Virus record (IMG/VR): IMGVR_UViG_3300021197_000864
Location: 31,572 to 95,571 of that record
Source of the DNA: a virus
Reading direction: 5' to 3' (one strand)
DNA: 64,000 nucleotides
Shown here piece by piece: positions 2,874 to 57,800 of the stretch (positions are counted from its first letter, which is position 1; every line of letters starts with the position of its first letter). Under the pieces are notes generated by a model. It was not told the DNA's origin and made no database searches. It saw only the letters and a list, made by a program, of their open reading frames with translations. Made by a program: the position numbers and the translations under genes.

Positions 2874-3626
2874 TCACCATTCTATTTTTATATCTTCAAA
2901 ATGTCTTTCTATTTTAATCAATGCCGCAGAAATACCGTTAAACCATTTCGGTAGCATCTTTACCCTCTCCACATAGTCCCCAAAATTTGTCGTACGCACT
3001 CTTACCGTGTTCCAAAGTGTAATATAATTTACTCCACCCTTTTTTATAGTAATCACTCTACGTTTAATCAAACGTATCCCTAGCGATTCTTCCATCACAC
3101 GGTCAATATTTTTATATTTTATTTTCCAATCACCTACACTCTCTTCGACATATGTTCCATACCTTTGTGGAGAACCCTGACTAATCATATCTAACGCCTT
3201 ACAATAAACTTCTTCGGGTATTTCGTTAACATCTTGTTCTTTATCTTGGTCGTTATCTTCTATTATACGTACCTCAACAAATGTATCAGGGTCGGCAAAC
3301 CCATCACTTAGTGTAGGATATAAATTTAATGTTGCATAAAAAAGGTCGTCATCATCTGTTATGGAGTCACCCATTCTAAATACAAAACCACCTTGTTCTG
3401 CCATTTTTTCAATATCATCAAATAAACTTTGTATGCTACCTTTTGGATTATTGTGAATAAGTTTTGTTTGTTCTGATTTTTTCCATACTTCATTTAAGAA
3501 TCTATCTTTACAATCATTATCTTCTTCATCAGGTTTATTTAAATTAAAAGGTTTAACTTTAAACTTGGGTAAATTAATACTCCGCATTTCATTTTTAAGA
3601 ATATTAAACCAAGTCATATAGGCCAC
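2874..3626 (-). CDS. Hypothetical protein, paralogue 2 of tandem family
   Basis: WFNILKNEMRSINLPKFKVKPF, CKDR, IPEEVYCKALD. Confidence 0.8.
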   Translation of the reverse strand: MAYMTWFNILKNEMRSINLPKFKVKPFNLNKPDEEDNDCKDRFLNEVWKKSEQTKLIHNNPKGSIQSLFDDIEKMAEQGGFVFRMGDSITDDDDLFYATLNLYPTLSDGFADPDTFVEVRIIEDNDQDKEQDVNEIPEEVYCKALDMISQGSPQRYGTYVEESVGDWKIKYKNIDRVMEESLGIRLIKRRVITIKKGGVNYITLWNTVRVRTTNFGDYVERVKMLPKWFNGISAALIKIERHFEDIKIEW

Positions 3627-4270: not shown

Positions 4271-4488
4271 ATCTCCCTACAAAATCAATTACCCAAATCG
4301 CCCAGTTAGGCAATATGTGAATGAAGGCGGCAGGTATCATACTTTAGCCTCTTCTATCCGGTTTAAAATGTTAACCCCGTAATTTGTCGAAAAATGGGCG
4401 GTCATTTTTTTACCACTTGCGATTTTTTTTATTTTTAAAACAATGCATTCCCGATATAAGATTGTACAGTTAGCACATTTTATAGTTC

Positions 4489-4537
4489 CTACAAATACCA
4501 CAATTAGAATTTTGTTGCTACAAATACCACAATTAGA
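4489..4537. repeat. 20-bp direct repeat CTACAAATACCACAATTAGA x2 (29-bp period)
   Basis: Exact copies at 4489-4508 and 4518-4537 in a non-coding AT-rich region. Confidence 0.9.
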
Positions 4538-4721
4538 TTATGTCTGTATCTTTATGCAAGAGCGTTTTTTTATTCTATTATATTTATATTCCCTTCTATT
4601 TAATTAAATATAGTGCCTTTTGTACTAAATAAGATAAAATTAATCACAGTAAAAAAATCTTTTTGATTGTTTTATAAAAAAAAATTTGAACCCTGCTACG
4701 CACCCATACCCCAATTACTAC

Positions 4722-4769
4722 CCATATGGTACGGTATAAAAAACGTACAACCATATGGTATGCGCTTTG
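4722..4769. promoter_or_regulatory. Paired CCATATGG / ACCATATGGT palindromes followed by CTTTG
   Basis: CCATATGG at 4722-4729; ACCATATGGT at 4750-4759 followed by atgcgCTTTG; the same module recurs at 7108, 7830, 7880 and 8555. Confidence 0.65.
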
Positions 4770-5233
4770 CCGCAGACCTCATAAAAATAAAGAAAAATCG
4801 GGTTAAGAGGTTAAACACACTTAATGAGAAGATAGTTTACCTACTGCCATGGTCTAGAGGTTTCTATCTTAACTAGTAAATGTTTTTGTTTAACATTAAC
4901 CGTCTTTTCTTGGGCTGGTACTTGTACCGTTTTTAACTTACAGACCTTTGAATTTATAATAAGGCGGAACTGCTTTCATATCCTATTGTCCCTAAAGCAC
5001 TCATGCATTAGTGGTTTACCTTTCGGTTAGGAACTCATAAACGTGGTTCAGTTTTAAGGAGTATCACCTCTTTGATACTCACACCTTATTCTTAATCTCT
5101 CTACTCTACCTAACTTCAGTGGCTTGAACAGGGTTGCGTACCTATTAACAAACATTAGGCTTGAATCCACAAACAATCTAATCTAACCGTAAGCCGATTA
5201 AATCCCTCATGTATAATCAAGAGAACTCGAATC

Positions 5234-5425
5234 TTATATTCCACCTGCTGACTGATTACGATAAATTGTAATAGCCTTTCTAAACTTAGCAGGTTTAAAA
5301 TTCTTATTTGTTTTTGTTAGTTTTTCAATTATGATATCTACCTTATCAGGTGGTACATCTATTTCAACAATCATACATACTAACCATTCAAAATGTTTCT
5401 TTGTGAATAATGAATACATACTCAT
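5234..5425 (-). CDS. Small hypothetical protein
   Basis: 63-aa ORF, last gene of the leftward small-gene run. Confidence 0.6.
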   Translation of the reverse strand: MSMYSLFTKKHFEWLVCMIVEIDVPPDKVDIIIEKLTKTNKNFKPAKFRKAITIYRNQSAGGI

Positions 5426-5607
5426 TGTATTCGCCTCTCACCTAAATAGAAAGCCCCTCTATTTGGTACTACCAAATAGATTACTTGCCATATTTTTCCA
5501 CCAATAACAACATAACCCAATGAGTTGTATTCATATCTATTCCTACTCATAAAACTATAATCTCTCATTTTAGTATTCCTCCGTATAAAAATCAAACCAC
5601 ATACCAC
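5422..5607 (-). CDS. Small hypothetical protein (likely start MRDYS)
   Basis: ORF overlapping its neighbours by a few bases; GGAGG RBS precedes the internal ATG. Confidence 0.5.
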   Translation of the reverse strand: MVCGLIFIRRNTKMRDYSFMSRNRYEYNSLGYVVIGGKIWQVIYLVVPNRGAFYLGERRIQ

Positions 5608-5740
5608 GCTTACTCAAATCTGAACAAGTTGAACCACTTGTTTCAGGGTCTTGACAATGTGATTGTGCTTCTTCAAGAGTTAGTCCTGTTTTAATTGTTT
5701 TATTATTTCCTTCAAAGTAACTCCTTACTACTTTATACAT
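5570..5740 (-). CDS. Small protein (MYKVVRSYF...TGLTLEEAQSHCQDPETS...WFDFY)
   Basis: Manual translation, 56 aa; resembles a small phage protein motif I recall (TGLTLEEAQxHC), unverified. Confidence 0.6.
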   Translation of the reverse strand: MYKVVRSYFEGNNKTIKTGLTLEEAQSHCQDPETSGSTCSDLSKRGMWFDFYTEEY

Positions 5741-5907
5741 TATATCACATCCAAAGGTAGATTAACACCACAATTCTCATTTATACATATATACCAAACT
5801 GTTGACATTGGTTTTCTAGTGAACATATTAATATCACTTCTTTTGTATGTGCAATCATTTTCAATTGCTGAACCACATTCACCACATTTCATACTATATT
5901 CTAACAT
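5740..5907 (-). CDS. Small zinc-finger-like protein (CGEC...CINENC)
   Basis: Manual translation, 55 aa; GAGGAGG RBS; TAATG coupling to the next gene. Confidence 0.6.
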   Translation of the reverse strand: MLEYSMKCGECGSAIENDCTYKRSDINMFTRKPMSTVWYICINENCGVNLPLDVI

Positions 5908-6078
5908 ACTTATTCCTCCTCATCATAAGGTTCATCTAAATATTCATGGTCATATGAAGTCATACTATCAGGATAAGGCATTATTCCTCACCCCTTTGTA
6001 ATGATAGTGTAACTTCTTCGCCACATTTACGACAATATAATTTATTTGCTGATATTATTTTACCACATATACATTCAT

Positions 6079-7798: not shown

Positions 7799-7839
7799 AG
7801 GGTACTTAAGGGTGTTCTCAAAGTACCACACCATATGGT
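7799..7839 (-). promoter_or_regulatory. Promoter module ACCATATGGT-N6-CTTTG-N8-CTTAAGTACCCT
   Basis: Repeated module upstream of paralogue A. Confidence 0.7.
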
Positions 7840-7879
7840 TGTAATACATAATATTTCATTATACATTTAAATAAATACT

Positions 7880-7920
7880 ACCATATGGTTCTACTTTGAT
7901 AGAACCCTTTAATAAGCCCT
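7880..7920 (+). promoter_or_regulatory. Promoter module ACCATATGGT-N4-CTTTG-N9-TTTAATAAGCCCT
   Basis: Repeated module upstream of paralogue B. Confidence 0.7.
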
Positions 7921-8453: not shown

Positions 8454-8482
8454 AACGGATTGACTCTTTGTGAGTACTAATT

Positions 8483-8526
8483 GGGGGAATAGGGCTTTAA
8501 TGCCTTATTCCTCCTTTTTTTATTTT
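8483..8526 (+). terminator. Hairpin plus T-tract terminator
   Basis: GGGGGAATAGGGC-loop-GCCTTATTCCTCC followed by TTTTTTT. Confidence 0.75.
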
Positions 8527-8541
8527 AAGGTCTTAAACTGA

Positions 8542-8623
8542 CAAAGCGTTTAATACCATATGGTTGTGTATTGTTTTAAAATAGAGGCTGCCGAAACCCT
8601 TGACGGCATCCTTTATATACCCT
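8542..8623 (+). promoter_or_regulatory. ACCATATGGT palindrome (8555-8564) and CCTTG-N8-CTTTATATACCCT promoter
   Basis: Same sub-motifs as the other modules; no ORF for ~500 bp downstream. Confidence 0.6.
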
Positions 8624-8699
8624 CCTAGCCGACTTGATTTGTAGGAACTGACCAAACATCATTCGTGTACAAGAATAACCTAATTAATACTTAAAGCAG

Positions 8700-9135
8700 T
8701 ATTATTCAAAGGATAAATATTTTACCACCAATATGACATCAGTTATTATTACTAATGATTAAAGAATCATTATTAATACAATATGTATTATTTGATAAAA
8801 ATATCAGTATCTAGTATCCTATATAATATAAGATAACTAAATAATATCTTACTCATTTTGATTAACATTCTTCCTTTTCACTTAAGTGGAAACGAGAGGT
8901 AGAACAAAATGAATAAGATATACAATATATGTATATCATTATAATATACATTATCATTTACTACATTTACATACATACATACATACTTTTTTTCTCTCTC
9001 TCTTTATTTATTTCTCTCTCTATGAAAAACAGTGGAAACGAGAGAAACGAATAAAGTAGAGCAAAGTGGTAAACATATACTAACATATGTATATCATTGT
9101 GTCATTTCCAACAAGTGTAAACGAGTGGAAACAAG
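8700..9135. other. Putative replication origin: AT-rich tract plus AGTGGAAAC ORB-like repeats
   Basis: AGTGGAAACGAGAG at 8885 and 9031, AGTGGAAAC at 9124, variants at 9065 and 9114; ATATGTATATCATT at 8927 and 9085; near the coding-strand switch. Confidence 0.5.
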
Positions 9136-9155
9136 AATAGCATTAAAAAAATAAC

Positions 9156-9584
9156 GTGATTAACATGGATAAAGAAATTAAAAGAACAAATGAAGAAGAT
9201 AACAAAGAAAGGAAGATAACAATGTTTAGTGGAAAGAGTGATGTCAAATATACACCTCCACAAACAATGCAACAACCTTACACAAGAAAACCTCTTGAAG
9301 GTGTAGCACTATTAATACATGAGAAGTGTAATGATATCAAAGGAATGCTTATTGAAAAGAATGAGCAGTATGGAGATTCAGCATTGAATCCAATTAGAAT
9401 ATTTTCAACATCTAATACAGATGAACAACTGCGAGTTAGGATAGATGATAAGTTAAGTCGTTTATCTCGCGGTAATGATTCATTAGAATCAGATGATGAT
9501 ATAATTAATGACCTAATAGGTTACTTAGTTTTATTATCAATACATAAAGACACTCACCCCATAAGTGGAGAAGTTGTGGAATAG
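9156..9584 (+). CDS. DUF1599 / nucleotide-modification-associated domain protein
   Basis: KNEQYGDSA...VRIDDKLSRL...DLIGY motif pattern. Confidence 0.7.
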   Translation: MINMDKEIKRTNEEDNKERKITMFSGKSDVKYTPPQTMQQPYTRKPLEGVALLIHEKCNDIKGMLIEKNEQYGDSALNPIRIFSTSNTDEQLRVRIDDKLSRLSRGNDSLESDDDIINDLIGYLVLLSIHKDTHPISGEVVE

Positions 9585-9660
9585 TCTTAGCGGGCTATCC
9601 TACAATACTTTAGGGTGTTACAAAAAGGGTTTAATCCAAATTAAAAAAGTAAAAAGATAT

Positions 9661-10560
9661 AGTGGATGAGTGCTGTCAAGCATAAAAGTCGCTTGATGCT
9701 AATTCTAGATTAGCAAAGTAATTCAATATAGAGTAGTAGGTTATCACAAGTATTATGCTTGTAATAGTCGGTCAGGTTTGTGTGAAAGCACTTGCTTTAC
9801 TTGAAAGTTGTCATATTACCAAAACTTGTAAAACTAATATGTCTGTAATCTCAAACAGATAATCAGTAAGAATTGTTTCCGCTAGAGACAATGGTCTGCT
9901 GATGACTTACCCACGTGGTGACGGCATAGAACGGTTACTTTCCCTTTAACACTCAATAGTCAATGAAGACTTTAAAATAAAAATACTCTAGATTCGGTTT
10001 AGGGTAGAGGTTTATGCAGTAATTAGTTCAAAACATTGGTCGAGTCCATGTGTTTTTTATTGTAGTGACATGCTATTTGCATCTTGTGAACTCCCTCTAC
10101 CCTCCGAATACTAATTACACTCAAACAATTCTTGTCTTACTACCTTCGGGACTAGAACACAAGAATCATTATGAGTAGAGTTTACTGAAATAAAAAAGAC
10201 AAATCGAGGTGGATTAGATTTCCACCCAAAGCAGTGATTAAATGACCTGCCCAATCTTGAAGTTTTGTTGATGCATTAATTTTCGAGTATCAGTAATGTG
10301 GTTTTCACCCATGTCTTTCTCTACTATTCACACTCACGACTACTTATGTAGTTCACAATTAAGGTTTTATCTTAATAATAAAATCTTCTAGTTTCTCTTG
10401 CTTAGGGGTATATCATTCTTTTATGTGGTGTTTTGGAATGATAAGTGCGTCATGCGACCTCAGTTTATTAGAACTAGAAGATTTTCCCTTAGTTGAGAGT
10501 CGGGTTTGTCAGTTAATACATCGCGGGTAACTGAGCAAGAGCCAAAAGATGTTCCCGACT
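9661..10560 (+). ncRNA. Cluster of putative structured non-coding RNA domains
   Basis: No ORF of 60 aa or more in ~0.9 kb; several long closing stems with internal hairpins (see findings). Strand inferred from neighbouring genes and G-U pairs. Confidence 0.5.
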
Positions 10561-10574
10561 AATCACATTCCAAT

Positions 10575-10832
10575 ATGGAGATAATTAAAATGAAGATAGA
10601 CTTAAGCGAAACAAAACCTGTATATGAATTACACATTTGGTATGAATTAACACAATCACCATTAGGTGAGTTTGATGACTTTGAAAAGTTTGATGATAAA
10701 GACAAGGCGTTAGAAGCATATCACAAATTAGATTGTGCTTACAAGGTACTCATAGAGTATGCAGGTGATGATGGTGATGTGTTGTTGGAATACAGCCACT
10801 ACACTGATGATGGTAGGGGTGATGACAAATGA
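10575..10832 (+). CDS. Acidic hypothetical protein
   Basis: 85-aa ORF with ATGA overlap to the next gene. Confidence 0.65.
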   Translation: MEIIKMKIDLSETKPVYELHIWYELTQSPLGEFDDFEKFDDKDKALEAYHKLDCAYKVLIEYAGDDGDVLLEYSHYTDDGRGDDK

Positions 10833-12756: not shown

Positions 12757-13011
12757 ATGAATACATTTCAAATGGAAATAGAAACTAAATTAATTAATGA
12801 TATTGATTTACCACCATTGATTGTCAAGATGGATGAAAATGATTATCCTAAGATATTAATTAATACAGCACACAAGACTTGGTTGATGTTATATCGTAAA
12901 GAAATAGCAGGATGTGCAGAACATTTATTTAAACAATTAGATAGAGTTCTTACAGCGCACCTACAAGAAATGCGCTCATTTGAGAAAATGGAAGATGAGC
13001 AAAATGACTGA
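12757..13011 (+). CDS. Hypothetical protein
   Basis: 84 aa; abuts the previous gene. Confidence 0.65.
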   Translation: MNTFQMEIETKLINDIDLPPLIVKMDENDYPKILINTAHKTWLMLYRKEIAGCAEHLFKQLDRVLTAHLQEMRSFEKMEDEQND

Positions 13012-13576
13012 TGATAGTTTTCTTCTAGAGTTAAAAGAAGGGGCGACTGAAAAAGGTAAACTGAATATTAGATTATTGATGAACACTTACTATCTATCAA
13101 TCAGAGCAGGATTAAGTGATGCTTTGTGTTTGACTTGTCATGACCCTATTGATATAAATCAAATTTTAGGTAGTGGTCAAAAGTATAATTTGTTTTGTTC
13201 ACTTACGTGTAGAAAAGAAATGTATGATAGTCGAAAACCACAGTTCCCTCCGACAACAAAACATTGTGAAAATTGTGGAGTTCCTTTTACGGTGCATAGT
13301 GCAAAAATGCTAGGGGTAAGAAAATATTGTAGAGAACAATGTCAAGTTGAATCAAAGAACAAAAGAAAATTAATTAAGAGAATAGATGACATACAGAATT
13401 TCAATGCTCTTAAAAATAGATTAGAAAGAAACATAGCATCATTCAAAAAAGGTAAAGGTGTTGAATGTTTGGAGTGTGGGAAATTGTTTATTGGTAAGTC
13501 AAGTAAGAAGTTTTGTTCAGACCAACCTTGTGGTCAAACATATAGAAGAAGACAAAAGAAAAACGGAATGAGATAA
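12980..13576 (+). CDS. Multi-zinc-finger protein
   Basis: Three CxxC...(F/Y)CxxxC-type units. Confidence 0.7.
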   Translation: MRKWKMSKMTDDSFLLELKEGATEKGKLNIRLLMNTYYLSIRAGLSDALCLTCHDPIDINQILGSGQKYNLFCSLTCRKEMYDSRKPQFPPTTKHCENCGVPFTVHSAKMLGVRKYCREQCQVESKNKRKLIKRIDDIQNFNALKNRLERNIASFKKGKGVECLECGKLFIGKSSKKFCSDQPCGQTYRRRQKKNGMR

Positions 13577-18174: not shown

Positions 18175-19391
18175 AAGTTAAGTTACATGTTCCGAGAGCA
18201 GATGATAGTCAGATATTTGATACAACAAGTTTTCTATATCGCACTACTGATTTGAAACGTAATTATCGTAGTAAACTAAATAGATTTGGTGAATATAAAG
18301 TAGTAAGTACTCTTGACTTAGATAAAAAAAATAGTTTAGACCCTATTTATGCAGGAATTAGTAAAGCATTAAATAAATTTCTATTTATGTCAACCAATGA
18401 TAATGTTACAACTATTATTACCTTTAAGTATAGGGATGGGGACTCAACTATTGTTTTTCAAAAGAATAAACCTCACTTTTTCTTAAATGGTGAGAAAGAT
18501 AGTAAAGGTATTATTATAGATAATTTAAGTAAGATTTTTTATCGTTCTTGTTTTGAGAAGAGTAGTACTAAGATGGATAGATATATTCGTAGGTTGTTAT
18601 TATTTCCACCGAATGTAATGTATTCAGTAGAAAATAGAACACCTTATTCATTTTATAGTAATGATGGGTCAATGGTGAAACAGAATGTTAGGATTAAAAC
18701 AAAGATAATTTCTGATAAAGAATGTGCATTAGAAATTTCTGATGGTGTTTGGGCTAGTATTACAATAAAAGATTTAAATTCATTTATTAATTACCATAGG
18801 CATGGTCATAAACGCTCTGAAAAATGGGGAGTTTCACCGGAAAACCTATGGAAAAAATTGTTAAATTATGAGCCTAGTAAGTCTCAAGTAAAATTGATGT
18901 ATGCTTTTCTAGAGCAAAATAGAACTCAATCATTAGTTGAAAAGAGAGCCGAAGAACTATTAGCAGAATTAGAAACTAAGTTTCCTAGTAAAATTAAAGT
19001 CTTTAAGTTGGGTAAACGTAAGCAAACTATTATGCTAGTTAGAGGTCAGAGATGTGATTGGGTATTAAAAGAAAACCCTTCTTCTTCTGATACTCAAAAA
19101 GTTAATACTCATAGATTTGTAGAAAATAATGATGGTGAAGCAAGTTCCAAAGGGGCTTTAATACATCCTCATAATTCTACGGTACTAGGTACTTTATCAG
19201 CAGTATGTATAGATAATATTCATAAAAATTCTAGTCTAGGCGACCAATTTGCTGCAAGAGCAATGTTTCTTATGAATGATGTTATGTCAAGTTCACAAAT
19301 CAATACAATGAGACTACCCGAAAAGGAACATAGGATACCTAATGTATATTGGGATAACTTAGATGAAATTGTTGCGAGGGGAAAACTGTGA
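18171..19391 (+). CDS. Hypothetical protein; C-terminal HP..G..VCID motif (speculative E2-like)
   Basis: 406-aa ORF; HPHNSTVLGTLSAVCIDNI loosely resembles the UBC motif HPN...G.ICLD. The gene is solid, the function speculative. Confidence 0.6.
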   Translation: MKVKLHVPRADDSQIFDTTSFLYRTTDLKRNYRSKLNRFGEYKVVSTLDLDKKNSLDPIYAGISKALNKFLFMSTNDNVTTIITFKYRDGDSTIVFQKNKPHFFLNGEKDSKGIIIDNLSKIFYRSCFEKSSTKMDRYIRRLLLFPPNVMYSVENRTPYSFYSNDGSMVKQNVRIKTKIISDKECALEISDGVWASITIKDLNSFINYHRHGHKRSEKWGVSPENLWKKLLNYEPSKSQVKLMYAFLEQNRTQSLVEKRAEELLAELETKFPSKIKVFKLGKRKQTIMLVRGQRCDWVLKENPSSSDTQKVNTHRFVENNDGEASSKGALIHPHNSTVLGTLSAVCIDNIHKNSSLGDQFAARAMFLMNDVMSSSQINTMRLPEKEHRIPNVYWDNLDEIVARGKL

Positions 19392-20290
19392 AATGTATAG
19401 AATGTGAATCAGAAAGAAATATGTTTGATGAAAGATTGGGTGAGCAAGTTTGTTTAGATTGTGGACTTGTCTTGGTGAAAAATATATTTGAAGATACTAT
19501 CAAAAATATAGATTATAATATATCAAATGTAGATTACAAAGGCGCACCTAACAAGTCTTGGGATTTAGGTTCAACTATTCATAAAGGAGATGTGAATAAG
19601 TTTGGTGTTATGGGTAGGAAATTATTCTTTACTCAAAGACATAACAACCCATTGAATGAATCTTATTTGAGGATGTTAAAATTATCTAATATGAATCTAT
19701 CATATTATAATGTAGCACCTGTACTAAAGAGTAGAGTAAGTAAATATTATAATTTGTTAAATAAAAAACAGGCATTAAGAGCAGTGCCTATTGATAATAG
19801 AGCAGCAAGTTTAACTTATTATATATTAAAAGAAGCAGGTATTGCAGTAACAGTACAGAAGCATTCTAATGTAACTAAGATATCTAGAGGTGAAATATCA
19901 AAATATGCTAGAGTGATAGCAACTCATTTAGGTAAGCCTTGGGTCTTTTCTCAAATGAACATTGAAGGTTTGATTCAAGAAGTTGGGTCAAAATTATATT
20001 TACCTAACCCTCAATATATTGGGGATGTAAGTAAATTATCAGAACACGTTTATCAAAAACTAGATGCTCACGGTGTGCAATTTACAATAGCAACTTTGTC
20101 TGCATGTTTTTATCTAGTGTCAGTATTTAGACGGGAAAATTATACACAACAAGAGGTTGCTAAATTAGTCGGTACTACCGAAGTATCACTAAGAAAGAAC
20201 ATGAAAAAGATTTTACAATTATATAATGTAGATAAAAATAAATTAAATTATATGGTATTAAATGATTTTATTAATGGAATTAGAAAGTGA
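19388..20290 (+). CDS. tfb: Transcription initiation factor IIB (TFB) homologue
   Basis: N-terminal Zn ribbon CIEC...GEQVCLDCGLV, then two cyclin-like repeats ending TQQEVAKLVGTTEVSLRK. Confidence 0.88.
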   Translation: MKCIECESERNMFDERLGEQVCLDCGLVLVKNIFEDTIKNIDYNISNVDYKGAPNKSWDLGSTIHKGDVNKFGVMGRKLFFTQRHNNPLNESYLRMLKLSNMNLSYYNVAPVLKSRVSKYYNLLNKKQALRAVPIDNRAASLTYYILKEAGIAVTVQKHSNVTKISRGEISKYARVIATHLGKPWVFSQMNIEGLIQEVGSKLYLPNPQYIGDVSKLSEHVYQKLDAHGVQFTIATLSACFYLVSVFRRENYTQQEVAKLVGTTEVSLRKNMKKILQLYNVDKNKLNYMVLNDFINGIRK

Positions 20291-20532: not shown

Positions 20533-21108
20533 ATGAAAAGAAAGATAATGATAATAGGTGCAGGTGGTATAGGTAGTATGTTAATACATAATTTAGAAAG
20601 ATTAGGTATTTATGACATAACTGTTTTTGATGATGATAAGGTAGAGAAAAAGAATTTAACTTATCAACATTATAATGAAAGCCACTTAGGAGAAAATAAA
20701 GCAGAAGCAATTAGTAGTCAGTTTAATGGTATTAAAGCCGAACCGTATTTAGTTTTAGTACCAAAACAGTTGAAAGGTTATGACCTAGTTATTTGTTGTG
20801 CAGATAATTTAGATGTAAGACGCTTGCTTTATAGGCAAGGTACAGGTGATGATGCTAACGTGAAGTGGTTAGATTTACGCGCACAAGGCAGAAATGCTAC
20901 GCTAATATCATATATGCTTAATCCTAATTTAGTGGATACTGTATTAACAGGGGAAGAAGGTTCTTTTTCCTGTCAAGCACAATCTTGGGATGGCTCTGCT
21001 AAAGGTGTTAATATGATGAATAATGTAATCGCTTCTATTGCTGCTCAATGGATTCAGAAATGGTTCAATAAGCAGGAAGTAACTGCAAGTATGGTGTTTA
21101 ATATATGA
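20533..21108 (+). CDS. ThiF/MoeB/E1-family adenylyltransferase
   Basis: IIGAGGIGS, DDDKVEKKNL..Q, NKAEA and CCADNLDVR motifs; candidate catalytic Cys in GSFSCQ. Confidence 0.9.
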   Translation: MKRKIMIIGAGGIGSMLIHNLERLGIYDITVFDDDKVEKKNLTYQHYNESHLGENKAEAISSQFNGIKAEPYLVLVPKQLKGYDLVICCADNLDVRRLLYRQGTGDDANVKWLDLRAQGRNATLISYMLNPNLVDTVLTGEEGSFSCQAQSWDGSAKGVNMMNNVIASIAAQWIQKWFNKQEVTASMVFNI

Positions 21109-21645: not shown

Positions 21646-22003
21646 AGTTAAGAAAGGAAAATGGGATGAGCATGAAGTAAAGTTACTTTGTGTTTGTTTG
21701 GATGAAGGTTTGGATGTTGAAGAAACAGTATTACGATTTGATGGTACTAGGACTTCTGCACAAATTAAAAGTAAGATTTCATCCAAAGCAATAAGAGAGC
21801 GTCATGTTGATTTAGATATAGAAGAGATGCATGAGGACTTGGTTAAAGAAGAAGAAATGGAAGAACATCTAGAAAAGGTAAAAGATGTTCTCGATGAGAA
21901 AATAGCAGAAGTTAAGAAAACTAACAATAAAATGGTGTTTAGATTAGTTCTAATTACAGCAGTAATTGTTGGAGTATTAATACAAACAGGGGTAATAGAA
22001 TGA
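21623..22003 (+). CDS. Myb/SANT-like HTH protein with C-terminal transmembrane helix
   Basis: KKGKWDEHEVKLL...RTSAQIKSK; hydrophobic tail LVLITAVIVGVLI. Confidence 0.6.
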   Translation: MRKMKKNKVKKGKWDEHEVKLLCVCLDEGLDVEETVLRFDGTRTSAQIKSKISSKAIRERHVDLDIEEMHEDLVKEEEMEEHLEKVKDVLDEKIAEVKKTNNKMVFRLVLITAVIVGVLIQTGVIE

Positions 22004-22575
22004 AGATAAAGAATAGTGAAGAAGAATATGATAAGAATGATAGATTTAGTGACGACACTAAATTATATGTAGATATAATGGAAAAGGTTGTTAAAGATAA
22101 CGAATGGAAAAAACCTATTAGAGAATTATGGGAAGTATGTTCTGATAGTATGGAATGGGTGTATCCTGATTTTGGTACAGAAGCATTCCTGAGTCAAATA
22201 TACAAACAATCTATTGAGCATTTTGATATTCCTAGAGAAGTTCAAGTGTTAGTAGATGCTAATAATAATCTATTCATGAGTGTTGGGACACCGGGTTTTG
22301 TATCTTTTGCAAATCAAGATGATGAGTTATATGGTAGTGAAGAACCAATGAAATTACCTATTAAATGTTGGATTCACACTCATCCTAATATGTCAGCGTA
22401 TTTCAGTGGAACTGATTGGGCAACTATTGATACTTGGAAAGGTAATTTAGATAGTGCAATTGTTTTAGGTCAAGGTGAAATGTGGGCTTATGATTGTAAA
22501 ACTGAAATAGGTAAGCACGTATCATTTATTAAGACCAATAGTGGTAGGTATTCTGTAACGGAAGGTGAGGAGTGA
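22000..22575 (+). CDS. JAB/MPN+ (JAMM) metalloprotease
   Basis: E (REVQV) followed by HTHPNMSAYFSGTD = E-x(n)-HxH-x7-S-x2-D. Confidence 0.85.
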   Translation: MKIKNSEEEYDKNDRFSDDTKLYVDIMEKVVKDNEWKKPIRELWEVCSDSMEWVYPDFGTEAFLSQIYKQSIEHFDIPREVQVLVDANNNLFMSVGTPGFVSFANQDDELYGSEEPMKLPIKCWIHTHPNMSAYFSGTDWATIDTWKGNLDSAIVLGQGEMWAYDCKTEIGKHVSFIKTNSGRYSVTEGEE

Positions 22576-26104: not shown

Positions 26105-26503
26105 ATGTTTAACCGAAGCCAACTTGAAGGCATATTATTATCACATCCTAAATGTGAAATTAATGTGTCTAGAGATAAAGAAACACACATTGGGTATAGA
26201 GTTAGGCTAAAGGTTAGTTTTAGGGGTAAGAGTGAGTTCCTATTGGGTATTCAGCGCACTCTTTTGCAGCATGAGATAGTTGCTAAGTATAAAGAAGAAG
26301 AACACAAGACAAGACCTAGACCAATATTGACTATAACAGGTAAAAAAAATCTATGGAACTTATGTAATATTGTTCCCGACAATTTACCTACTGCTAAAGG
26401 AGAATGGGAAACTTTCAAACAGGCAGTAATAATAGTTGATTCAAATCGACAACACACTGAAAAAGGTCTAGATGAAATCTTAGCATTAAAAGGGGTAATA
26501 TGA
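26105..26503 (+). CDS. LAGLIDADG-fold protein, probably nuclease-inactive
   Basis: GYRVRLKVSF, then HTEKGLDEI; the signature helix reads LEGILLSHP with no terminal acidic residue. Confidence 0.7.
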   Translation: MFNRSQLEGILLSHPKCEINVSRDKETHIGYRVRLKVSFRGKSEFLLGIQRTLLQHEIVAKYKEEEHKTRPRPILTITGKKNLWNLCNIVPDNLPTAKGEWETFKQAVIIVDSNRQHTEKGLDEILALKGVI

Positions 26504-32017: not shown

Positions 32018-33721
32018 ATGATAATTAGTGAAACAACAGAAGGAATATACACAGCATGGAGGGATGATACGGGTAAAAGAGAATCCTGTATCACCCCCCA
32101 CATGGTTTTTAGACCATATTTCTATATTTTAGCAAGTGATTCTAAACCTGAGAATATTATTAGTAGAGATAAATGGGGCAATAGTAGAGTATTAACTGTA
32201 TCTTATGAAGAAAATAGAGCATATAAAAGTCTACAAAACCTACCTTTAACTAGAGTTTACTGTAAAAACCCTCAAGAGATGAGGAAGGTAAAGGATGAGT
32301 TTGCTACTACTTTTGAAGCAGACGTAAGATATACACATAGATATGCTGTTGATGTATTTTACAAGACTAATAGTGAAACGATACGTTTCTTTGGTGAAAA
32401 AGGATTTCCTGAATATGATTTAAGAAAGTGTTATTGGGACATGGAATGGATGCAAGGTGGAGAACATGATGGTAAGATTACTTGTATAGTTATGTATGAT
32501 AATTTTGAAAAGAAGTTTCATAGATATAGTTGGTTTCCTACGAAAAGAAACTTAAGTGAAAATACTGTAAGAGAAGATACAGAAGAGTTTGTCTTTGATA
32601 ATGAGAAAGCAATGATACTTTATTTCCTAACAGTGATAAATAAACAAGACCCTGATATGTTAATATCTTGGTTTGGAAACAGATTCGATTTACCTAAGTT
32701 ATTAGAAAGATGTGCCGCACTTAATCTAGACGCTAGGTTATTATCACCTGTTTGGGAAGTTGATGGGTTCAAGAATAATAAAAATAGTTATTCGTTTAAT
32801 AGAGATTTTTTTGGTCCTATTGAACAACCAATTAAAGGAAGAATAACATTGAGTTTAGATGTAGCGTTTGAGAGACAATGGAATGATGCTCAACGCGGTA
32901 CTCTTCCTTCACTATCATTAGATTATGTATCGAATCTAGTTCTAGGTTCTAAGAAATTAGTTAGTGAAAAGTTTCCTGATAAACAGGAGTTTTTCAGAAG
33001 AGGATGGTTAGAGGATTCTGATACCTATTTGCAGTATGCCTTAATAGATGTAGAACTAATTAAAGAATTAGACGAAACAAACTATTTGTCAGAAGCGGTA
33101 TTGTCATTACAGCGTTTAATTAAAGCCCCATTTGATGCTTGTTTTTATGCAAGTAATATGGGTGCAATATATTTCATGCGTAATGCTTGGTGGAAAGCAC
33201 CATCATCAACTGATGGAGTCAAGATTAACTACGAAGGTGCAATGATATATGACCCGTTGAAAGAAGGTACTAATGGTTTACATCAAGGTGTAGCAGCATT
33301 TGATTATGCACAACTATATCCATCAATGATGATAGCACGTAATATATCTTGGGAAACTAAATCAGATGTTCCAACAGAATTTGCTGTAAACATTTCTACT
33401 CCTAGAGATTTCTCACCTGCTAAAACTAAAACAATGTTATATTACAAGACTGATGAATTAGGAATATTACCTAAATCAGTTTTAGAATTAAAAGCATTGA
33501 GAGATGAGTACAAAAAGAAAATGAAAGAAGCGACAACTAAAGATGATAAGGTTAAATGGAATAACAATCAGTTAGCAGTAAAGCGATTGATGGCGAGTTT
33601 CTATGGTATCATCGGGTATCAGGGTTTTGGTTGGTCTGATGTAGATATAGCCGCTAGTATTACTGCTAGTGCAAGGCAAGCAATTAGATTTGCTGCATTA
33701 AAAGTGGAGGGATTAGAATAG
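32018..33721 (+). CDS. polB: Family B DNA polymerase, N-terminal part (3'-5' exonuclease plus motifs A and B)
   Basis: WDMEW (ExoI), GNRFDLP (ExoII), YALID (ExoIII), FDYAQLYPS (A), KRLMASFYG (B). Confidence 0.93.
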   Translation: MIISETTEGIYTAWRDDTGKRESCITPHMVFRPYFYILASDSKPENIISRDKWGNSRVLTVSYEENRAYKSLQNLPLTRVYCKNPQEMRKVKDEFATTFEADVRYTHRYAVDVFYKTNSETIRFFGEKGFPEYDLRKCYWDMEWMQGGEHDGKITCIVMYDNFEKKFHRYSWFPTKRNLSENTVREDTEEFVFDNEKAMILYFLTVINKQDPDMLISWFGNRFDLPKLLERCAALNLDARLLSPVWEVDGFKNNKNSYSFNRDFFGPIEQPIKGRITLSLDVAFERQWNDAQRGTLPSLSLDYVSNLVLGSKKLVSEKFPDKQEFFRRGWLEDSDTYLQYALIDVELIKELDETNYLSEAVLSLQRLIKAPFDACFYASNMGAIYFMRNAWWKAPSSTDGVKINYEGAMIYDPLKEGTNGLHQGVAAFDYAQLYPSMMIARNISWETKSDVPTEFAVNISTPRDFSPAKTKTMLYYKTDELGILPKSVLELKALRDEYKKKMKEATTKDDKVKWNNNQLAVKRLMASFYGIIGYQGFGWSDVDIAASITASARQAIRFAALKVEGLE

Positions 33722-33931: not shown

Positions 33932-34029
33932 TAATTATGAAAGATAAAATGTTAATAAGAATGATATATGTAATAGGTAAAATATCTACACTGATAAGTA
34001 GATTTAATAGTAGTAGGTGGAGAAAATGA
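33928..34029 (+). CDS. 33-aa microprotein coupled to the PolB C-terminal gene
   Basis: ATGA overlaps at both ends. Confidence 0.4.
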   Translation: MIIMKDKMLIRMIYVIGKISTLISRFNSSRWRK

Positions 34030-34931
34030 AAGTGGTTTACGGTCATACTGATTCTATTTATGTTAAGTGTGAAAGTATTGAGAAAGGAGAAGAGATTTGT
34101 GCTATGTTGAATGAGTCTGTAAGAGAATACTTCCCTAATGTTTTAGGGTTAAAAGAACATCCTGTAACACTAGAGTTTGAAAAGTATTTTGAAACACTAG
34201 GAGTCGGTGCAACAAAGAACAGAAATGCAGGAATGATTTCTTGGAAAGATGGTGATTTCTTAGATAGTAAAGAGTTTGTTATGACAGGTTTTACCGCTAA
34301 AAGAATATCAGAAACGGCACTTGCTAAAGAGGTACAAATAAAGGTTTTGAAAATGTGGGTAATGAACAACTCAGAAGAAGAAATACTAGATTATTTAGTA
34401 TCTATTTATCAAGATACTTTACAAGGTAGATTAACACTTGATAAAATATTAAAGCGTAGTAGATATAAAGAAGAAAGATTTCATGTTTATTGTACTGTAT
34501 GTAAGAAATCATATCATTTAGATGATGCTAAATGTAACTGTGTTCTTACTAATAAGAAATCTGCACTAACTACTGCTAGAAAAAGTGGCAAAGGTTGGGC
34601 TTCGGCAGGAAAAAGACCTACTGTTGGTGCAGGTATATTGGGTGTACTAATGTACAATAAAACTAACACTACACCAATAGAAGATACTTACTTGTATCTT
34701 AAAATGAAAGACTATCCATCTATGATTAATCACCCAATAACAGGGAACTCATTTGTTCCTAATTATATGGCGGGATTAACAGAAGAGGATTTTAAAACAA
34801 TTACACCTGATTGGGAACATTATGCTCAATCAGTTGTTAAAAAAGCAAGCCCAATATTTGATGCTATGGATTGGGATACATCTAAAATAACAAAAGATGT
34901 ACATCAAAGAACACTAGATGAATGGTGGTAA
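34017..34931 (+). CDS. polB: Family B DNA polymerase, C-terminal part (motif C, thumb, PIP box)
   Basis: YGHTDSI, LEFEK and KNRNAG motifs; C-terminal QRTLDEWW PIP box; likely start ATG 34026. Confidence 0.92.
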   Translation: MEKMKVVYGHTDSIYVKCESIEKGEEICAMLNESVREYFPNVLGLKEHPVTLEFEKYFETLGVGATKNRNAGMISWKDGDFLDSKEFVMTGFTAKRISETALAKEVQIKVLKMWVMNNSEEEILDYLVSIYQDTLQGRLTLDKILKRSRYKEERFHVYCTVCKKSYHLDDAKCNCVLTNKKSALTTARKSGKGWASAGKRPTVGAGILGVLMYNKTNTTPIEDTYLYLKMKDYPSMINHPITGNSFVPNYMAGLTEEDFKTITPDWEHYAQSVVKKASPIFDAMDWDTSKITKDVHQRTLDEWW

Positions 34932-43308: not shown

Positions 43309-46300
43309 TCAACCTACCATAATCCAATTATTAGCAGTAACACAAATAAACGATGCTAACTCATGGTCTGCTATTGCTGCATTTGTAAAGCCTGAAATCA
43401 TAGAACAATTAGTGCTATTAAGCGCAATAGAAGCCTGACTACCTTTGTTATTAATTACAGTATATTGAGTTCCTACTGTTCCGCTTGCAGGTAAAGTTAA
43501 TGTCCCACCTGTCCAATAAACGTATGAACCTGATTGTGCTATTGTTAATGTTGTATTACTTGATGCCGCTACAACATTTGCTCTACTTGTCATTTGACCG
43601 GGAATTGCTACTTCACCACTACTACCTATGGTTAATCTCGCTGTTCCACCTGTTGAGAATCCAAAATTGTTGTCACCGATTCGATACATTCCTGTATCAG
43701 TATCGCCATTGAAAGTGTAGTAAGGAGCGGCTTCCGTTCCACTCAAAGCCATAAACTTACCCGAACCACCACCGATATAGAAATTGGTAGCAGTAAAACC
43801 AACATCACCATGCACTTGTAATTTATTACCGTATGATGCACCACCGATAGCAACATTACCGCTTCCGTTTATTTTGAAAGGTGTTGAATCAACATTTGAT
43901 GAATCTTCGACAATAAAAGCATCTCCTGAACCTGTTTGTGTAATTCTTAGTAGTTGTTGGTCTGATGATGCACTAATAACAAACTTTTCAGATGATGAAG
44001 TGTTATCATAAGTAAATGACGCTATTCCATCTTCTGTACCACCATTGTTATACAATAATTCAGTATCACTACCGCCAACTGTGCCGCCTGATGGTGTCTC
44101 CCAAGCAACTCCTGAACCTGTTGAAGTTAGAACTTGACCGTCAGAACCATATGAGTTTCCAATCTTCAATTTTGAATCAACTAAATCAACAGCACCATCT
44201 GAGTATATTTTTAGTCTTGGACTTCCACCTGTTCCTAAGAATATAGCATTCGTATCTTCTCTACCCATGCCGCAATCGTTGTCGTCAATAAATGTGAAAG
44301 ACGGAGATGTATAACTGCCCCCACCAAGAGATATATTTGCTGCTACTGATGCAGTTGAATCAACAGTAAGATTATCAGTTTTTACTGTTCCATCAAAGTA
44401 TGCGTTTTTAAACTGACTACTACCTGTTCCTAAATCTATATCATCATCAGTAACAGGTTCTATTACACCATCTTTAATGAATAATTGAGCAGTTCCATCT
44501 ATTGTAAATCCTATTTGATTTTCTGCATATCGGTATATTCCTGTATTATCATCACCTGCTAATGATAATCCGGGTGCAGTATTAGAACCTGCGATAATCT
44601 CAAATCTTTTATTTGCTTCAACCTTAGAGGATTGCATATACATAGCATTAGAACCACCAACTGAGAATGCTAAAGTATCACTTGTTAATCTATACATTCC
44701 TGTATTAGTATCAGAAGCAAATGAAAATGTAGGTGCGCTTGCTGAACCATTAACACCACCTGCGTTTGTATCGCCACTACTAACAGTAGTGAAACTTAAA
44801 TTTCCACTTCCATCAGTTTGAATGACTTGATTTGCAGAACCATCTGATTGAGGTAAATAATAGAGGCCGTTAATTTGTACCTTACTTGTTGAATCTCGAC
44901 CAAGAACTACTTTACTATTAGCATCATCACCATTGTTAATGTAAATACTTCCCGATGTGGAATCGTTTATCTGAATATATGGCTCAGTCCAACCTGCATT
45001 TGTATTGGTAGTTAGAACCAAATCTTGTGAACCGTTTGAAGATATCTTGGCCGTAGCAGACCCCGTTCCAAATAGAGTTGTAACACTACCCAATGTTTTG
45101 TTAGTGAGGGTTTGAGTACCTGTTAATGTAGCAACTGTTGAATCAATGTTCAATGTTGCACTACCACTTGTAGCCCCACCACTAAGCCCTGTACCTGCAA
45201 CTACTGCTGTTATATCTCCTGAACCTGAACCAAAGTTTTGTGCTGCTATATAATCATAAACTGCATCACCATCAACTAAACCTGTATTACCATTTCCTAC
45301 TGTTCCTGAATCAGCCCATGCTCCATCACCACGAAGATAAGTTGCTGTTTTACCTGCGGGGATTGAAGGTACTAAACCTGCTTTACCTATTGAAGAAGCA
45401 CCTGCACCTTCAAATCTTGGAATGAATATATCTTTTGAACCGCCTACTGTAACCTTAACTCCTTCAGGGGCTTTAATAGTAGTATTATCACTATGGCCTA
45501 CCGCAGTTGTACCTGCATGGCCTCTTACTGTTCCGGTTGTTTGCCCGTTACCGTCAATACCTGTATAATAGACTAATTCATTACCTATTTCTAATAATCC
45601 TCTAGTTGGAAAACCTGTTGCGTCATCTAATTTAATATGGTCTGTTGTGCCTAAATCTGCATCATCTAAACTAGTTGCCGCTATTTGAGAATAAGCCGTT
45701 GTAAAGGCACTAACTTTATCACCTGTTACTGCACTATCTGCTAATTCTGCTGTATCAATAGCATTAGCACCTACCTTATCATTAGTAACTGCACCTGTTC
45801 CTAATCTTGCTTCTGTAATAGCACCTGTACCTATTCTTGATGCAGGTAAAGTTCCTGCTGTTAATTTTTCAGCATTGATTCCTGTTGCTAATTTATCATT
45901 AGCAATAGAACCTGCTAACTTATCTTGTGAAATTGAACCTGCTAATTGTGCATTAGTTATTGTACCTACCAAATTGCTAGTAGTATATCCGGTAGCATTA
46001 GTTAATGTTCCACTTGCAGGAGTTCCTAATACGGGTGCAACTAAAACCATACCACTAGCCATTGTTCCTTGAGAAACTTGTGCAGCAGGTAATGCTGTTG
46101 CGTTTGTTAATACTAAAGCAGAAGGTGTTCCTAATGCGGGTGTAGTAAGAGTAGGACTTGTTAATGTTTTATTGGTTAGAGTTTGTTCTTCTGTTAACTG
46201 AACAATGTTGCTGTTTGTTATAGAAGCAATCTTAGTAGAAGTATCAGCATTACCTGTTAAATCTCCAACAACACTACCACCAAAACTTGTTGCAGTAAAT

Positions 46301-54815: not shown

Positions 54816-57800
54816 TTACACATCCTTTTCACTCTCATATGTGGTATTAGTAGTGGTACTTGTTTCCCCAAAGCCTAAAGTATTTCCGAATCCAAGAATT
54901 AAATCTGCGCCCATAGTAGTACTATCAGAAGTTGATTTAATTTCATATTTAATAAGGTTATTATTAATTTGTATTTCATCAAATAATGCTTTACCAACAA
55001 CATTTTCAGTTGCATTTTTAGTAAACAATGTAAAGTTAGCATTCTGTTGTTCTAAGTTAATTTCAGATAGTCTTTCTGCAATTGATTTATCAAATGTACC
55101 TACGGTAATTTCTGCTGTTCCTGATAAAACATTTTCTATATCAAAAACCATATAATCATCTCTAGGTATTTGTTGATTAGGGAAATCTAAAGATATAATA
55201 TCTCCCGCCTCTAAAAGTTCTATTCCTTTCTTTTGTAGAACTAATTTTATCTTTCTTACATCTTTATTGTGGTGATTTAATAACTTTATTGCTTTTATTT
55301 TTGCTTCGTCAGGAGTTTTAATAGAAGCATCTACATGACGTAATACTTGTGGAGTATTATTGGTTGGTAATTCCATTTCTGCTTTTACACCATCTCCGAC
55401 AACTATTACTTTGGTCTTTTTATCGAATAGTGTTTTATTAGATTGTACACGTATTAAATTATTATCTTTGCTATATGATACATGATATTTTCTTAAAGCA
55501 TATGGACTAGATAAATTTCTAGTAATTATAGCATTATTTTTAATTTTAAAATCTAAATCTTTCAAGTTAGCCAAATAGTTGATTGCACTAAAAGAATCTA
55601 CTGATTCAAATTTAACATTAGTAACAAATGTATTTTTATTTCTCTTAGTAAGTTCATCGAAAGGTGAAGGAGTAAACACTATTCCTCCTCCAAAGGTCAC
55701 TGAAAATGCACCACTAGTAGTATTTTTATCCGTAATTTTACCAATTAGATAGCCATCTTGATTATATATCACATCATTGATGGCTACATTTACCGGACTA
55801 CTACTTAAAGTGACTTCATTTCCACTAGAATAATTACTTTTTACAATTAAATCGGTATATTCTTTCAAACTTTCTTCAATATTTAAATCTAAACCCGATT
55901 CTTTAGCAATTTCTTCAAGAACATTATCAACTTTACTGCCTAATCTAACAGTAGTTCCTAAAAATGCATTCTTAGGGGTGATGTTTAACTTCTTAGGAAG
56001 AGTCAAATTGATTACTTTACCAAAAGAAACACAACCATTTGCTGAAATCTTACCATCATATTCAAACTTTAATGCGCTATTTGATTTTGTTACAGATAAA
56101 GATTTTCTCTGCTCATTTATACCATCACTAATAAAACAATCAATCTCTTCGCCATCTGTAAACATACTCATGTTAGCGAATAATCTTCTTTCTAAATATG
56201 TATTAGCAGTATCTATTTCTAATAACATATGCATAGAATATACACCTTCCGAATCAGTAGACTTAACTCCTTCTACACCGCCTGTTTTGAAGTCAGCAAA
56301 TACTTTATCATGTTGTAAGCCTGAATCATCCATTACATTAATTTCAAAGAAATCAGGTGTTTCATCGAATGTGGTTTCTGATATTCTCATTAATCTATAT
56401 GTACCCGCAGCACTCAAATCTTTATCGAAAGTAATTGTATGTTGCCATTTGTTACTAACTACTTTTTTTGTATGGCTAATTATTTTACCAATATATGATG
56501 GAGTACCCTTTGTAGTTATATTTGGCCCAACTATATATTGCCCTGTTAAATCTACCATATAGTGTAGCCAATGATGTGTAGAAGTACTATCCATAGTTCT
56601 AGTAATCACACTAGGGGTACTACTATAATCACCTGAAAGAATATTAAATTGTGGTTTTATTAACATTTGGGCAGCAAACATTCTACCCTCTTCATCACCA
56701 CTAACGGTTTCATTATGTACAATATCCGCGTCATTATCCCCTGATATTTTATTCACATTTAATTTGGTTAATCCATTGACTAAAGGATAAGATTCAGTTT
56801 TCATACCGATAAATGCGGCATCTAAATGTCTAAGTGTGCTTGTTGTGTGAAGACCTTCCCTAATTAATAAATTTTTAGAATGTTGATTTTGTGTGGTTAA
56901 AGATACATCAACATTACTAGATGAAGTATCATTATAACTATTATCTATGGTAAGTAAAGAACTAGAATCAAAATCATATAGATTGCTTGCATCCTTACTA
57001 GTTATATTTTTAATATTTCTAAATACAGCAACACAATTATCATAAATAGTTTTAGATGGAAAATCAGCATAATAATGTGGAGTTGTAATCCCATTAGCAG
57101 TTTTAAATAAAGGAGAAGATAATCCCGATAAAACTGCTGAACGGTGATATAAACTACCACTAGAACCTCCATTTACATCTGAATCAGCCGCATTCATTTT
57201 CCCATAATGTACGCCCGAATTAGTTTTTGATTTTGCATTATTAGAAGCACCTGTTGGTAAACCTGTTTCTGAAATAATTGGTAAAAATACATTATGAACA
57301 TCATAACCAAAATTAGAACCATGTTTTAAAGCATTATAAGAAAAGTATAATTCATCCTTATGAGTCAATGCTAAATTAGGTATAGCAAAATAGGCTAATG
57401 TAAAATCAACACTACCTGATGTATTATAAGTTCCATTATCCCCAAGACTATATAAATAGTCATCAGAAGAATCTAGTAAATCAAATGCAGGTCTACTATT
57501 TGTTTGTAATGTAAAAGTTCCATCTCCATTGTCTGTTGCATTAGCAAATCTTCTTAGTTTAATTATAGGAACTCTAGGTATCTCATCTCTATTTTTTAAT
57601 GCATCAGAGTCTATTGGGTTAAAGTGCCAATCAAAAGTTGCTTCGGTCAATCTGATTATACCCCATCTTTGTAATTCTTTAGTATTAGTTGCATCAGAAT
57701 CATCTATTATTGTTATATCATAATCTTTGTCTTGCATTTCATCAGATGTAGTTTTTCCAACATAATTAGTATGTTCTCTTTGGCTTCCTTTGCTTCCTTT

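Follow-up and report, generated by a model that had tools for sequence, protein, structure and literature searches.

The 990-nt gap at 9585-10574, between a 142-aa open reading frame (ORF; 9156-9584, phrog_1485) and an 85-aa ORF (10575-10832), is occupied by a tandem array consisting of a unit of approximately 390 nt (unit 1), four more stem-closed modules and two small hairpins, and not by one giant RNA (Table 1). Comparison among related viruses shows the array to be made of RNA structures that are conserved, covarying and specific to one strand, and whose family is not in Rfam. The explanation that we favour, and consider probable, is that the gap holds, one after another, genes for stable non-coding RNAs that each fold independently, and that several of these RNAs belong to a single family not yet described. 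The window (the whole stretch of DNA that was analysed, 64,000 nt in length) extends from base 31572 to base 95571 of an IMG/VR virus record that is 95,571 bases long and that CheckV rates as complete. Its GC content is about 32%, and a comparison with 50,697 GenBank phage records revealed no nucleotide similarity.

Layout and turnover of the array

No ORF of at least 50 aa is present at 9585-10574 under table 11, table 4 or TAG=Q, which bears out the remark in an earlier note on this DNA that no long ORF occurs here, and which rules out a hidden gene read with an alternative code. Two more stretches of the window are without an ORF of at least 70 aa, namely 8454-9155 (702 nt) and 4271-6078 (1808 nt), the latter having just 36-69-aa ORFs on both strands.

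The earlier note had drawn six basal helices in this region and had proposed either one large non-coding RNA or a cluster of processed small RNAs. The cluster is upheld, in that modules are independently present or absent in close relatives and, in three studies, RNA-library contigs cover unit 1 alone; the single large RNA is not; and the processing is a step that we infer. The 5' start of the array lies near 9553, about 100 nt before the start given at that time. Five of the six helices proved to be real, while the first, within unit 1, was probably mis-paired, as discussed below. The pairing ATTCGG-TTT-AGGGTAGAGG with CCTCTACCCT-CCGAAT in module 2 and the perfect 14-bp stem of module 4 (10380-10393/10472-10485) were found exactly as originally written. 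The ATTCTTGT/ACAAGAAT helix of the small hairpin cassette likewise stands, its copy in the related locus L040 being compensatory (ATTCTTTT/AAAAGAAT), as does the AGTCGGG/CCCGACT helix of module 5 (10498-10504/10554-10560), which is changed on both strands to AGTTGGG/CCCAACT in loci L044 and L026. Module 5 lies 24 nt upstream of an ATG at 10591, with GGAG at 10578-10581 as the ribosome-binding site.

Table 1 Features of the RNA array, with positions in the window
Feature	Position	Strand	Details	Basis or folding z
Boundary motif core, first copy	9550-9556	+	ACACTCA	inside the 3' end of ORF 9156-9584
Unit 1, whole	~9553-9947	+	closed by 9624-9629/9942-9947	
Unit 1, 5' domain	9553-9623	+	hairpin 9578-9600 with invariant loop UUAGCGG (9587-9593)	stem covaries, 17 sequences
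Unit 1, main domain (~320 nt)	9624-9947	+	H1 9624-9629/9942-9947; H2 9646-9652/9935-9941	frame located by script
Unit 1, tracts and hairpin		+	U-tract 9630-9632; A-tract 9643-9648; GGCAUAG-loop hairpin, conserved loop 9923-9929	
Module 2	9992-10109	+	outer ATTCGG/CCGAAT; 10-bp AGGGTAGAGG/CCTCTACCCT; inner junction with variable hairpin	z -4.8
Boundary motif	10110-10122	+	ACTAATTACACTC	exact match to ACTAWTYACAYTC
Small hairpin cassette	10128-10166	+	8-bp stem, UUCG-type loop	z -3.0
Module 3, H1 and Px	10171-10334	+	H1 10174-10180/10319-10325; Px 10182-10188/10290-10296	R1 match, covariation
Module 3, H2, Hc and terminal motif		+	H2 10195-10201/10312-10318; hairpin Hc ~10297-10312; ACTATTCACACTC at 10323-10335	
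Small hairpin	10338-10354	+	GACTAC-UUAU-GUAGUU	read from sequence; conserved in L040-L043
Module 4	10356-10495	+	H1 CAATTAAGG/CCTTAGTTG 10356-10364/10487-10495; U-tract; A/U hairpin; 14-bp helix	z -2.4
Module 5	10498-10560	+	AGTCGGG/CCCGACT; UUU after 5' strand, UU before 3' strand	z -1.7
Boundary motif variant	10558-10570	+	ACTAATCACATTC	before downstream gene also in L026, L040, L043, L044

Comparison with shuffled sequences gives modest support for folding. The z-score of the whole gap is -3.5 on the + strand and -2.5 on the - strand (only 20 shuffles were used), and single modules range from -1.4 to -4.8 on the + strand with similar values on the - strand, so that the two strands are not separated. 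Folding energy alone is weak evidence; the case for the array rests on conservation, covariation and expression.

In the clade of the window the joints between cassettes are marked by a 13-nt motif, ACTAWTYACAYTC, exact copies of which occur three times in the 95,571-base genome, all on the + strand and all in the array. In distant relatives a homologous CACACTC comes immediately after the stop codon of that ORF which corresponds to 9156-9584. Across the wider family the motif follows 15 of 34 modules, and it is therefore taken to be a feature of the clade and not a universal processing signal. Only the 13-nt form is specific: the heptamer ACACTCA occurs 15 times in the window against 10 expected, which is not significant. 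Separate promoters for each module were also considered and rejected, since a TATA-like box 25 nt upstream was found for the first motif copy only.

Approximately 60 related loci, numbered here with the prefix L, were recovered from IMG/VR by means of the flanking proteins. Close relatives share the gap yet differ from one another in whole blocks. The block 10124-10321, which includes the hairpin at 10128-10166, is missing in L041, L042 and L043, and in L040 that hairpin is located within the variable loop of the next module. Module 2 is kept in L041-L044 with a different inner hairpin sequence; in L040 its place is taken by an unrelated cassette, and L044 (74% identity) has both module 2 and the L040 cassette. 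The interior of module 4 has been swapped for unrelated sequence in L044, and its copies in L041 and L043 were found by script to keep the same H1-UUU-AAAA-H2 frame. In L026, whose flanking protein is 57% identical, module 3 is found at 90% identity in a 1.6-kb array of otherwise different cassettes, and in more distant relatives the order of cassettes is shuffled. Among related viruses, modules thus come, go and replace one another as whole cassettes.

A pseudoknot family represented by module 3

The RNAs of the array match no family in Rfam, and the earlier note had likewise recognised none. The window has no match in Rfam 15 at gathering threshold, GOLLD, ROOL, HDV-type ribozymes, manA, RNase P, SRP and tmRNA included; within the gap, a search at E<=10 returned only noise (RT-14 at 23 bits, threshold 48.1; NEAT1_2 at 15 bits, threshold 60) and the Rfam tRNA model gave no match even at that level. 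Nor does any module of nine related loci match Rfam, and with ARAGORN the window and 25 of 26 related loci came out empty.

When 20 homologues of module 3 are aligned, RNAalifold returns the helices H1 and H2, each of them with compensatory changes; in H1, which the earlier note had recognised as AGTAGAG/CTCTACT, the second pair is C-G in ten of these sequences and U-A in nine. H1, which covaries in the family, is followed by UUU and then by a word that differs from virus to virus (ACUG, CUAC, GUCG, GUUC, AUUGU, UGCA, GUAC or CAAC), and the complement of this word was seen by eye at a fixed place, after a conserved UAG and just 5' of the hairpin Hc. In module 3 the resulting helix Px is formed by UUACUGA with UCAGUAA. 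Px and H2 cross, so that the core of the family is a pseudoknot closed by H1. Comparative analysis shows for module 3 the order H1, U-tract, Px, A-rich tract running into H2, variable insert, Hc, and a UU(U) linker to H1.

When tested with positions anchored, cognate Px words form on average 5.1 contiguous Watson-Crick pairs, compared with 3.4 for non-cognate words; an unanchored version of the test was swamped by G/U-rich loops and was discarded in favour of the anchored one. On a MAFFT alignment of 13 sequences, H1, Px, H2 and Hc taken together are paired in 91.6% of cells, as against 44-53% with slid partners, counts that are to be read with the knowledge that Px was found by eye in the very same sequences. 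In this alignment 11 pairs (37 cells) are changed on both sides, a figure reached by none of 500 shuffles, and the compensatory pairs include four of the six in Px and four in H2. The alignment derived from the model R1 (A7) has 93.8% of cells paired and 16 of 17 pairs changed on both sides, as may be expected to some extent of an alignment fitted to the model. Covariation, which the earlier note had proposed to look for, is thus present in the RNAalifold analysis of 20 homologues and in both of these alignments. Cells with G-U far outnumber those with A-C (42 versus 6 in the model-fitted alignment, 26 versus 6 in the MAFFT seed alignment), which puts the selection on RNA of the + strand and not on hairpins in DNA.

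The same model R1 detects 38 copies at E<=1 in 398 kb, all of them on the gene-sense + strand of their loci and all in arrays. The copy in the window, at 10171-10334, was not in the seed and scores 39.1 bits (E 7e-7); non-seed copies were found in 12 other loci at E<1e-3, and on five whole virus records the matches are in arrays only. An exact-pattern scan of IMG/VR with the module 3 signature gave 22 stretches, and among the 15 that lie on further contigs one is a true module and the rest are due to chance. Modules 2, 4 and 5 and unit 1 have no R1 match at E<=1, and have in common with the family only the outer H1-U-A-H2 frame: a helix, UUU, an A/U hairpin with an A-tract, a second helix, UU(U), and the closing strand of the first helix. 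This frame was rejected as evidence in its own right, because a loose pattern scan gives 0-8 occurrences in shuffled windows against two distinct real ones. The modules contain a UUU(U), an A-tract of 5-7 and a UU(U), from which an ENE-type U-A-U triple helix, with U-rich strands on both sides of an internal loop clamping the A-tract, might conceivably be built; the covariation is accounted for by ordinary helices.

The arrays of two relatives contain tRNA genes as well. That of L033 consists of a tRNA gene, four modules, a second tRNA gene and one more module, separated by A/T spacers of 6-11 nt without the motif; the two tRNA genes (2634-2707 and 3087-3169) score 72 and 55 bits with the Rfam tRNA model and were missed by ARAGORN in bacterial mode. 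In L018 a tRNA-Leu gene is directly 3' of a module. H1 and H2 moreover share a continuous 3' strand of about 14 nt, as do the acceptor and T arms of tRNA, and together with the tRNA genes in the arrays this makes cutting by host tRNA-processing enzymes a reasonable idea. Some other likenesses were pursued and abandoned. Several modules have ACA 14-16 nt from the end of H2, as in an H/ACA guide RNA, but inspection by hand revealed no K-turn and no guide pocket, the 3' side of the internal loop being UU(U) only; and a T-box-like UGG loop and a hammerhead-like CUGANGA, the latter in a cassette of relatives, were judged by eye to be without the defining features of those RNAs.

Unit 1 and the RNA libraries

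Four studies of seawater RNA have yielded contigs that lie on unit 1. These are X15 (9553-9926), the longest, X16 (9622-9936), X20 (9620-9860) and X18 (9560-9782); in three of the four studies, two of which are represented by libraries of only about 10 million letters, unit 1 is the sole part covered of a 4.2-kb stretch. DNA carry-over would not give such a pattern. X16 and X20 start 2-4 nt before H1 of unit 1, in contigs that show no strand, ends or level. In one contig from a relative, with loose ends at 10124 and 10176, the end of a module is joined to CACACTC, the small hairpin and the start of another module, an arrangement compatible with a common precursor. Support from RNA libraries is limited to unit 1 and one small hairpin; modules 2-5 of this virus were not covered by contigs, from which it does not follow that they are silent.

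Homologues of unit 1 were found behind the same ORF in four further clades, with a conserved set of features that includes hairpins with UUAGCGG, UAUAAAA and GGCAYAG loops and the closing H1/H2 frame. The full-length alignment across clades is too noisy to give a consensus; two hairpins hold up. In 17 sequences one pair in the stem of the UUAGCGG-loop hairpin is GC in five, CG in four, UA in three and AU in two, and another is UA in four, AU in four, CG in three and GC in two. The closing pair of the GGCAYAG hairpin is similarly varied across clades (CG 6, AU 4, UA 3, GC 3), and the H1/H2 frame is compensatory between clades, as AAGGG/CCCTT, AGGGG/CCCCT or ACAGAG/CTCTGT. A second model, R2, built on distant relatives only, finds the window at 9866-9948 with a weak E-value of 0.019. 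New copies are found with E-values from 1e-22 to 1e-25, the L026 clade at about 1e-5 and the clade of the window at 0.007-0.11, at the equivalent place every time.

It is in unit 1 that the first helix of the earlier note, 9661-9674/9787-9801, was drawn. The complementarity exists but includes wobbles and a bulge, and RNAalifold prefers a long-range helix, 9663-9672/9906-9915, which is compensatory in L044 (GTGG/CCAC to GAGG/CCTC) and for which a distant clade has a counterpart. A Px helix in unit 1, AUCCA/UGGAU, was tried as a candidate and rejected, as it loses two of its five pairs in L043 and L044 with no compensation.

Possible roles, likely host and genomic surroundings

In the proposed course of events the array would be transcribed on the + strand along with the flanking early genes and, in related viruses, together with the tRNA genes of the same arrays. 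The transcript would then be cut, or trimmed, to the closing helices, to yield nuclease-resistant RNAs with paired ends, their stability being due presumably to those ends and to the pseudoknot. The 13-nt motif, the cassette joint of the window's clade, could be a cutting signal, a recombination site, or both. Unit 1 would be the abundant product, in which the H1-U-A-H2 frame surrounds a far larger conserved interior.

The main rival to stable, independently folding RNAs is that the modules act in cis, as structures between cistrons or in 5' UTRs which, once the transcript is cleaved, would cap the mRNA downstream and block exonucleases as a 5' stabiliser or in the manner of a viral xrRNA, with the accumulated RNA a by-product of decay. 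It owes that position to the many arrays in which the last module ends just before a ribosome-binding site (1-25 nt before that of the next gene), and the contigs X16 and X20 begin as if trimming had been halted by structure; a helix-closed compact pseudoknot is also the type of fold that resists exonucleases, as has been established for flavivirus xrRNAs. Yet one such structure would be enough, whereas there are up to six modules per array with tRNA genes between them; the loop and junction nucleotides are conserved more than a mechanical block requires; and unit 1 is 600 nt upstream of the next gene with other modules in between. On balance we regard this as a minority possibility, and the next as improbable: that the array is a riboswitch-like or protein-responsive leader, with tandem aptamers controlling the 85-aa ORF and the denV-like gene downstream. 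Conserved junction and loop nucleotides and a pseudoknot are indeed typical of aptamers, the array is upstream of a gene, and a manA RNA (RF01745, a riboswitch candidate) is present elsewhere in the relative L049. There is however no evident expression platform, whether a terminator or a helix sequestering the ribosome-binding site, the downstream genes vary among viruses, tRNA genes are interleaved, and the number and order of modules vary freely. The manA RNA itself (L049:1126-1331, - strand, 83 bits against a threshold of 55.2) is about 3 kb from the module array and on the opposite strand.

The inverted repeats might alternatively operate as DNA, as part of a nearby origin or as mobile or recombinogenic hairpins, with RNA structure incidental. 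A cluster of repeats resembling the archaeal origin recognition box (ORB) and an A/T-rich stretch do lie 450-700 nt upstream, cassettes are gained and lost at a repeated motif, and folding z-scores are similar on both strands. What makes this very improbable is the tolerance of G-U and not of A-C in the counts given above, the placement of all 38 model matches on the strand of the flanking genes, the crossing helices with compensatory changes, which suit one folded strand, and the occurrence of unit 1 alone in RNA libraries. We give least credence to the idea that the modules are what is left of a viral tRNA island, either decayed tRNA genes or relics that resemble tRNA. The tRNA genes in the arrays of L018 and L033, the closing helices of about 7 bp and the continuous 3' strand of H1 and H2 would all fit such an origin; but neither ARAGORN (in the window and 25 of 26 related loci) nor the Rfam tRNA model (in the gap) finds tRNA, and relics would not be expected to have a conserved, covarying architecture of their own.

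If the modules are stable RNAs, they may act in trans. As a tentative guess, the pseudoknot core would serve as a handle for a protein of the host or the virus and the insert as a payload, so that the RNAs are decoys or scaffolds of early infection. A bolder version, which we think rather unlikely, treats the locus as the RNA equivalent of a gene-cassette array: the exchangeable RNA-gene cassettes would all share a single pseudoknot scaffold, the handle for one protein of the host or the virus, and would differ in their inserts, which would be aimed at different host targets; the joints would allow a repertoire of decoys or guides to be shuffled, and unit 1 would be its founding and essential member.

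A number of known systems offer partial parallels. The tRNA gene cluster of phage T4 contains the small stable species 1 and 2 RNAs, which are co-transcribed and cut from a common precursor. Like the RNAs of the present arrays they are virus-encoded in tandem with tRNA genes; we know of no relation to them in sequence or structure, and the present RNAs differ in having a probably archaeal host, a pseudoknot core, larger and variable arrays, and a processing that is inferred. Phages and prophages likewise bear large, elaborately folded and abundant non-coding RNAs, among them GOLLD, ROOL and other ornate kinds; each is one RNA of 600-800 nt, as against separate modules of 40-390 nt here, and no Rfam match connects them. 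Tandem xrRNAs in the flavivirus 3' UTR are also compact, helix-closed pseudoknot modules that are duplicated or lost, and they yield abundant nuclease-resistant RNA; they are those of a eukaryotic RNA virus, with a defined ring-like fold around the 5' end, and have no sequence similarity to the modules. HDV-like ribozymes share with module 3 a nested order of helices (5' strands 1 and then 2, inner hairpin region, 3' strand 1, hairpin, 3' strand 2), with Px corresponding to P1, H2 to P2 and Hc to P4; the likeness is one of topology only, since module 3 has an extra outer H1, almost no joining strand at the site of the catalytic C, and no Rfam match of HDV type. Tan1 is a 229-nt, highly abundant and complexly folded non-coding RNA of seawater metatranscriptomes, found on MG-II/III contigs (Hou et al. 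2016, PMC5069720). Compared by description only, it is shorter than unit 1 (~320-390 nt) and it was assigned to the host and not to a virus.

Archaeal viruses have so far yielded very few non-coding RNAs, and we know of none for which a fold family has been described. The archaea of Marine Group II rank, together with their viruses, with the most abundant uncultured plankton. The locus offers a defined and testable RNA architecture, a pseudoknot core with a variable insert, and evidence that its largest member, unit 1, accumulates in the sea; shared processing is suggested by the way in which the cassettes alternate with tRNA genes. As decoys or scaffolds, the RNAs would open a route into virus-host conflict in archaea not yet cultured; as nuclease-resistant caps, they would parallel viral xrRNAs in prokaryotes. 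In either case the models R1 and R2 provide a handle for tracing these viruses and their activity in metatranscriptomes.

The host of this uncultured ocean virus is likely to be archaeal, and probably a member of the Poseidoniales, on account of a split family-B polymerase, a clamp loader and polymerase resembling those of haloarchaeal viruses, and ORB-like repeats. The + arm encodes a ribonucleotide reductase (RNR), an ATP-dependent ligase, a PD-(D/E)XK nuclease, a clamp loader, for which the lowest E-values (2e-43 to 9e-42) are to the haloarchaeal viruses HCTV-1 and HCTV-5, and a family-B polymerase divided between two ORFs about 300 nt apart (32018-33721 and 34017-34931), with approximately 25% identity to haloarchaeal virus polymerases over almost the full length. 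A split polymerase is the hallmark reported for group B magroviruses (PMC5434244). The chaperonin gene typical of described magroviruses is absent from the genome, and GTDB genomes gave no link to a host, the single match being to an unrelated Granulicella.

Upstream of the array, three exact + strand copies of AGTGGAAAC, at 8885, 9031 and 9124, are clustered at 8885-9136 around an A/T-rich segment (8900-9010), the first two extended to AGTGGAAACGA. These copies agree with the core of CTTCCAGTGGAAACGAAAGGGGT, the consensus for the archaeal origin recognition box (PMC4153887, PMC1868953), which makes 8885-9136 a candidate replication origin of the Orc1/Cdc6 type beside the RNA array. A fourth exact copy is at 17873. 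In L026, repeated GATAAACG words around an A/T-rich stretch (2480-2770), also upstream of the array, replace the AGTGGAAAC repeats, and may reflect a different initiator specificity. A perfect palindrome, ACCATATGGT, is operator-like in its distribution: two copies (7830-7840 and 7880-7890) lie where the - and + gene arms diverge, in the promoter region, and a third (8555-8565) comes after a terminator-like hairpin near 8483-8520.

Some further features of the genome may be recorded. Three ORFs on one strand (19388-20290, 20533-21108 and 22000-22575) encode a protein whose N-terminal zinc ribbon is of TFIIB type (26.1 bits, where the cut-off is 29), an enzyme like ThiF/E1 (E 1e-21) and a protein with a weak JAB-domain match. 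On the - strand there are two giant ORFs, 43309-54471 (3720 aa) and 54816-61421 (2201 aa), the larger of which has a product without any PHROG match at E<=1e-5. The replication arm also contains two possible homing endonucleases, an HNH protein at 12980-13576 (phrog_1271, E 6.5e-18) and, at 26105-26503, a weak LAGLIDADG-like match.
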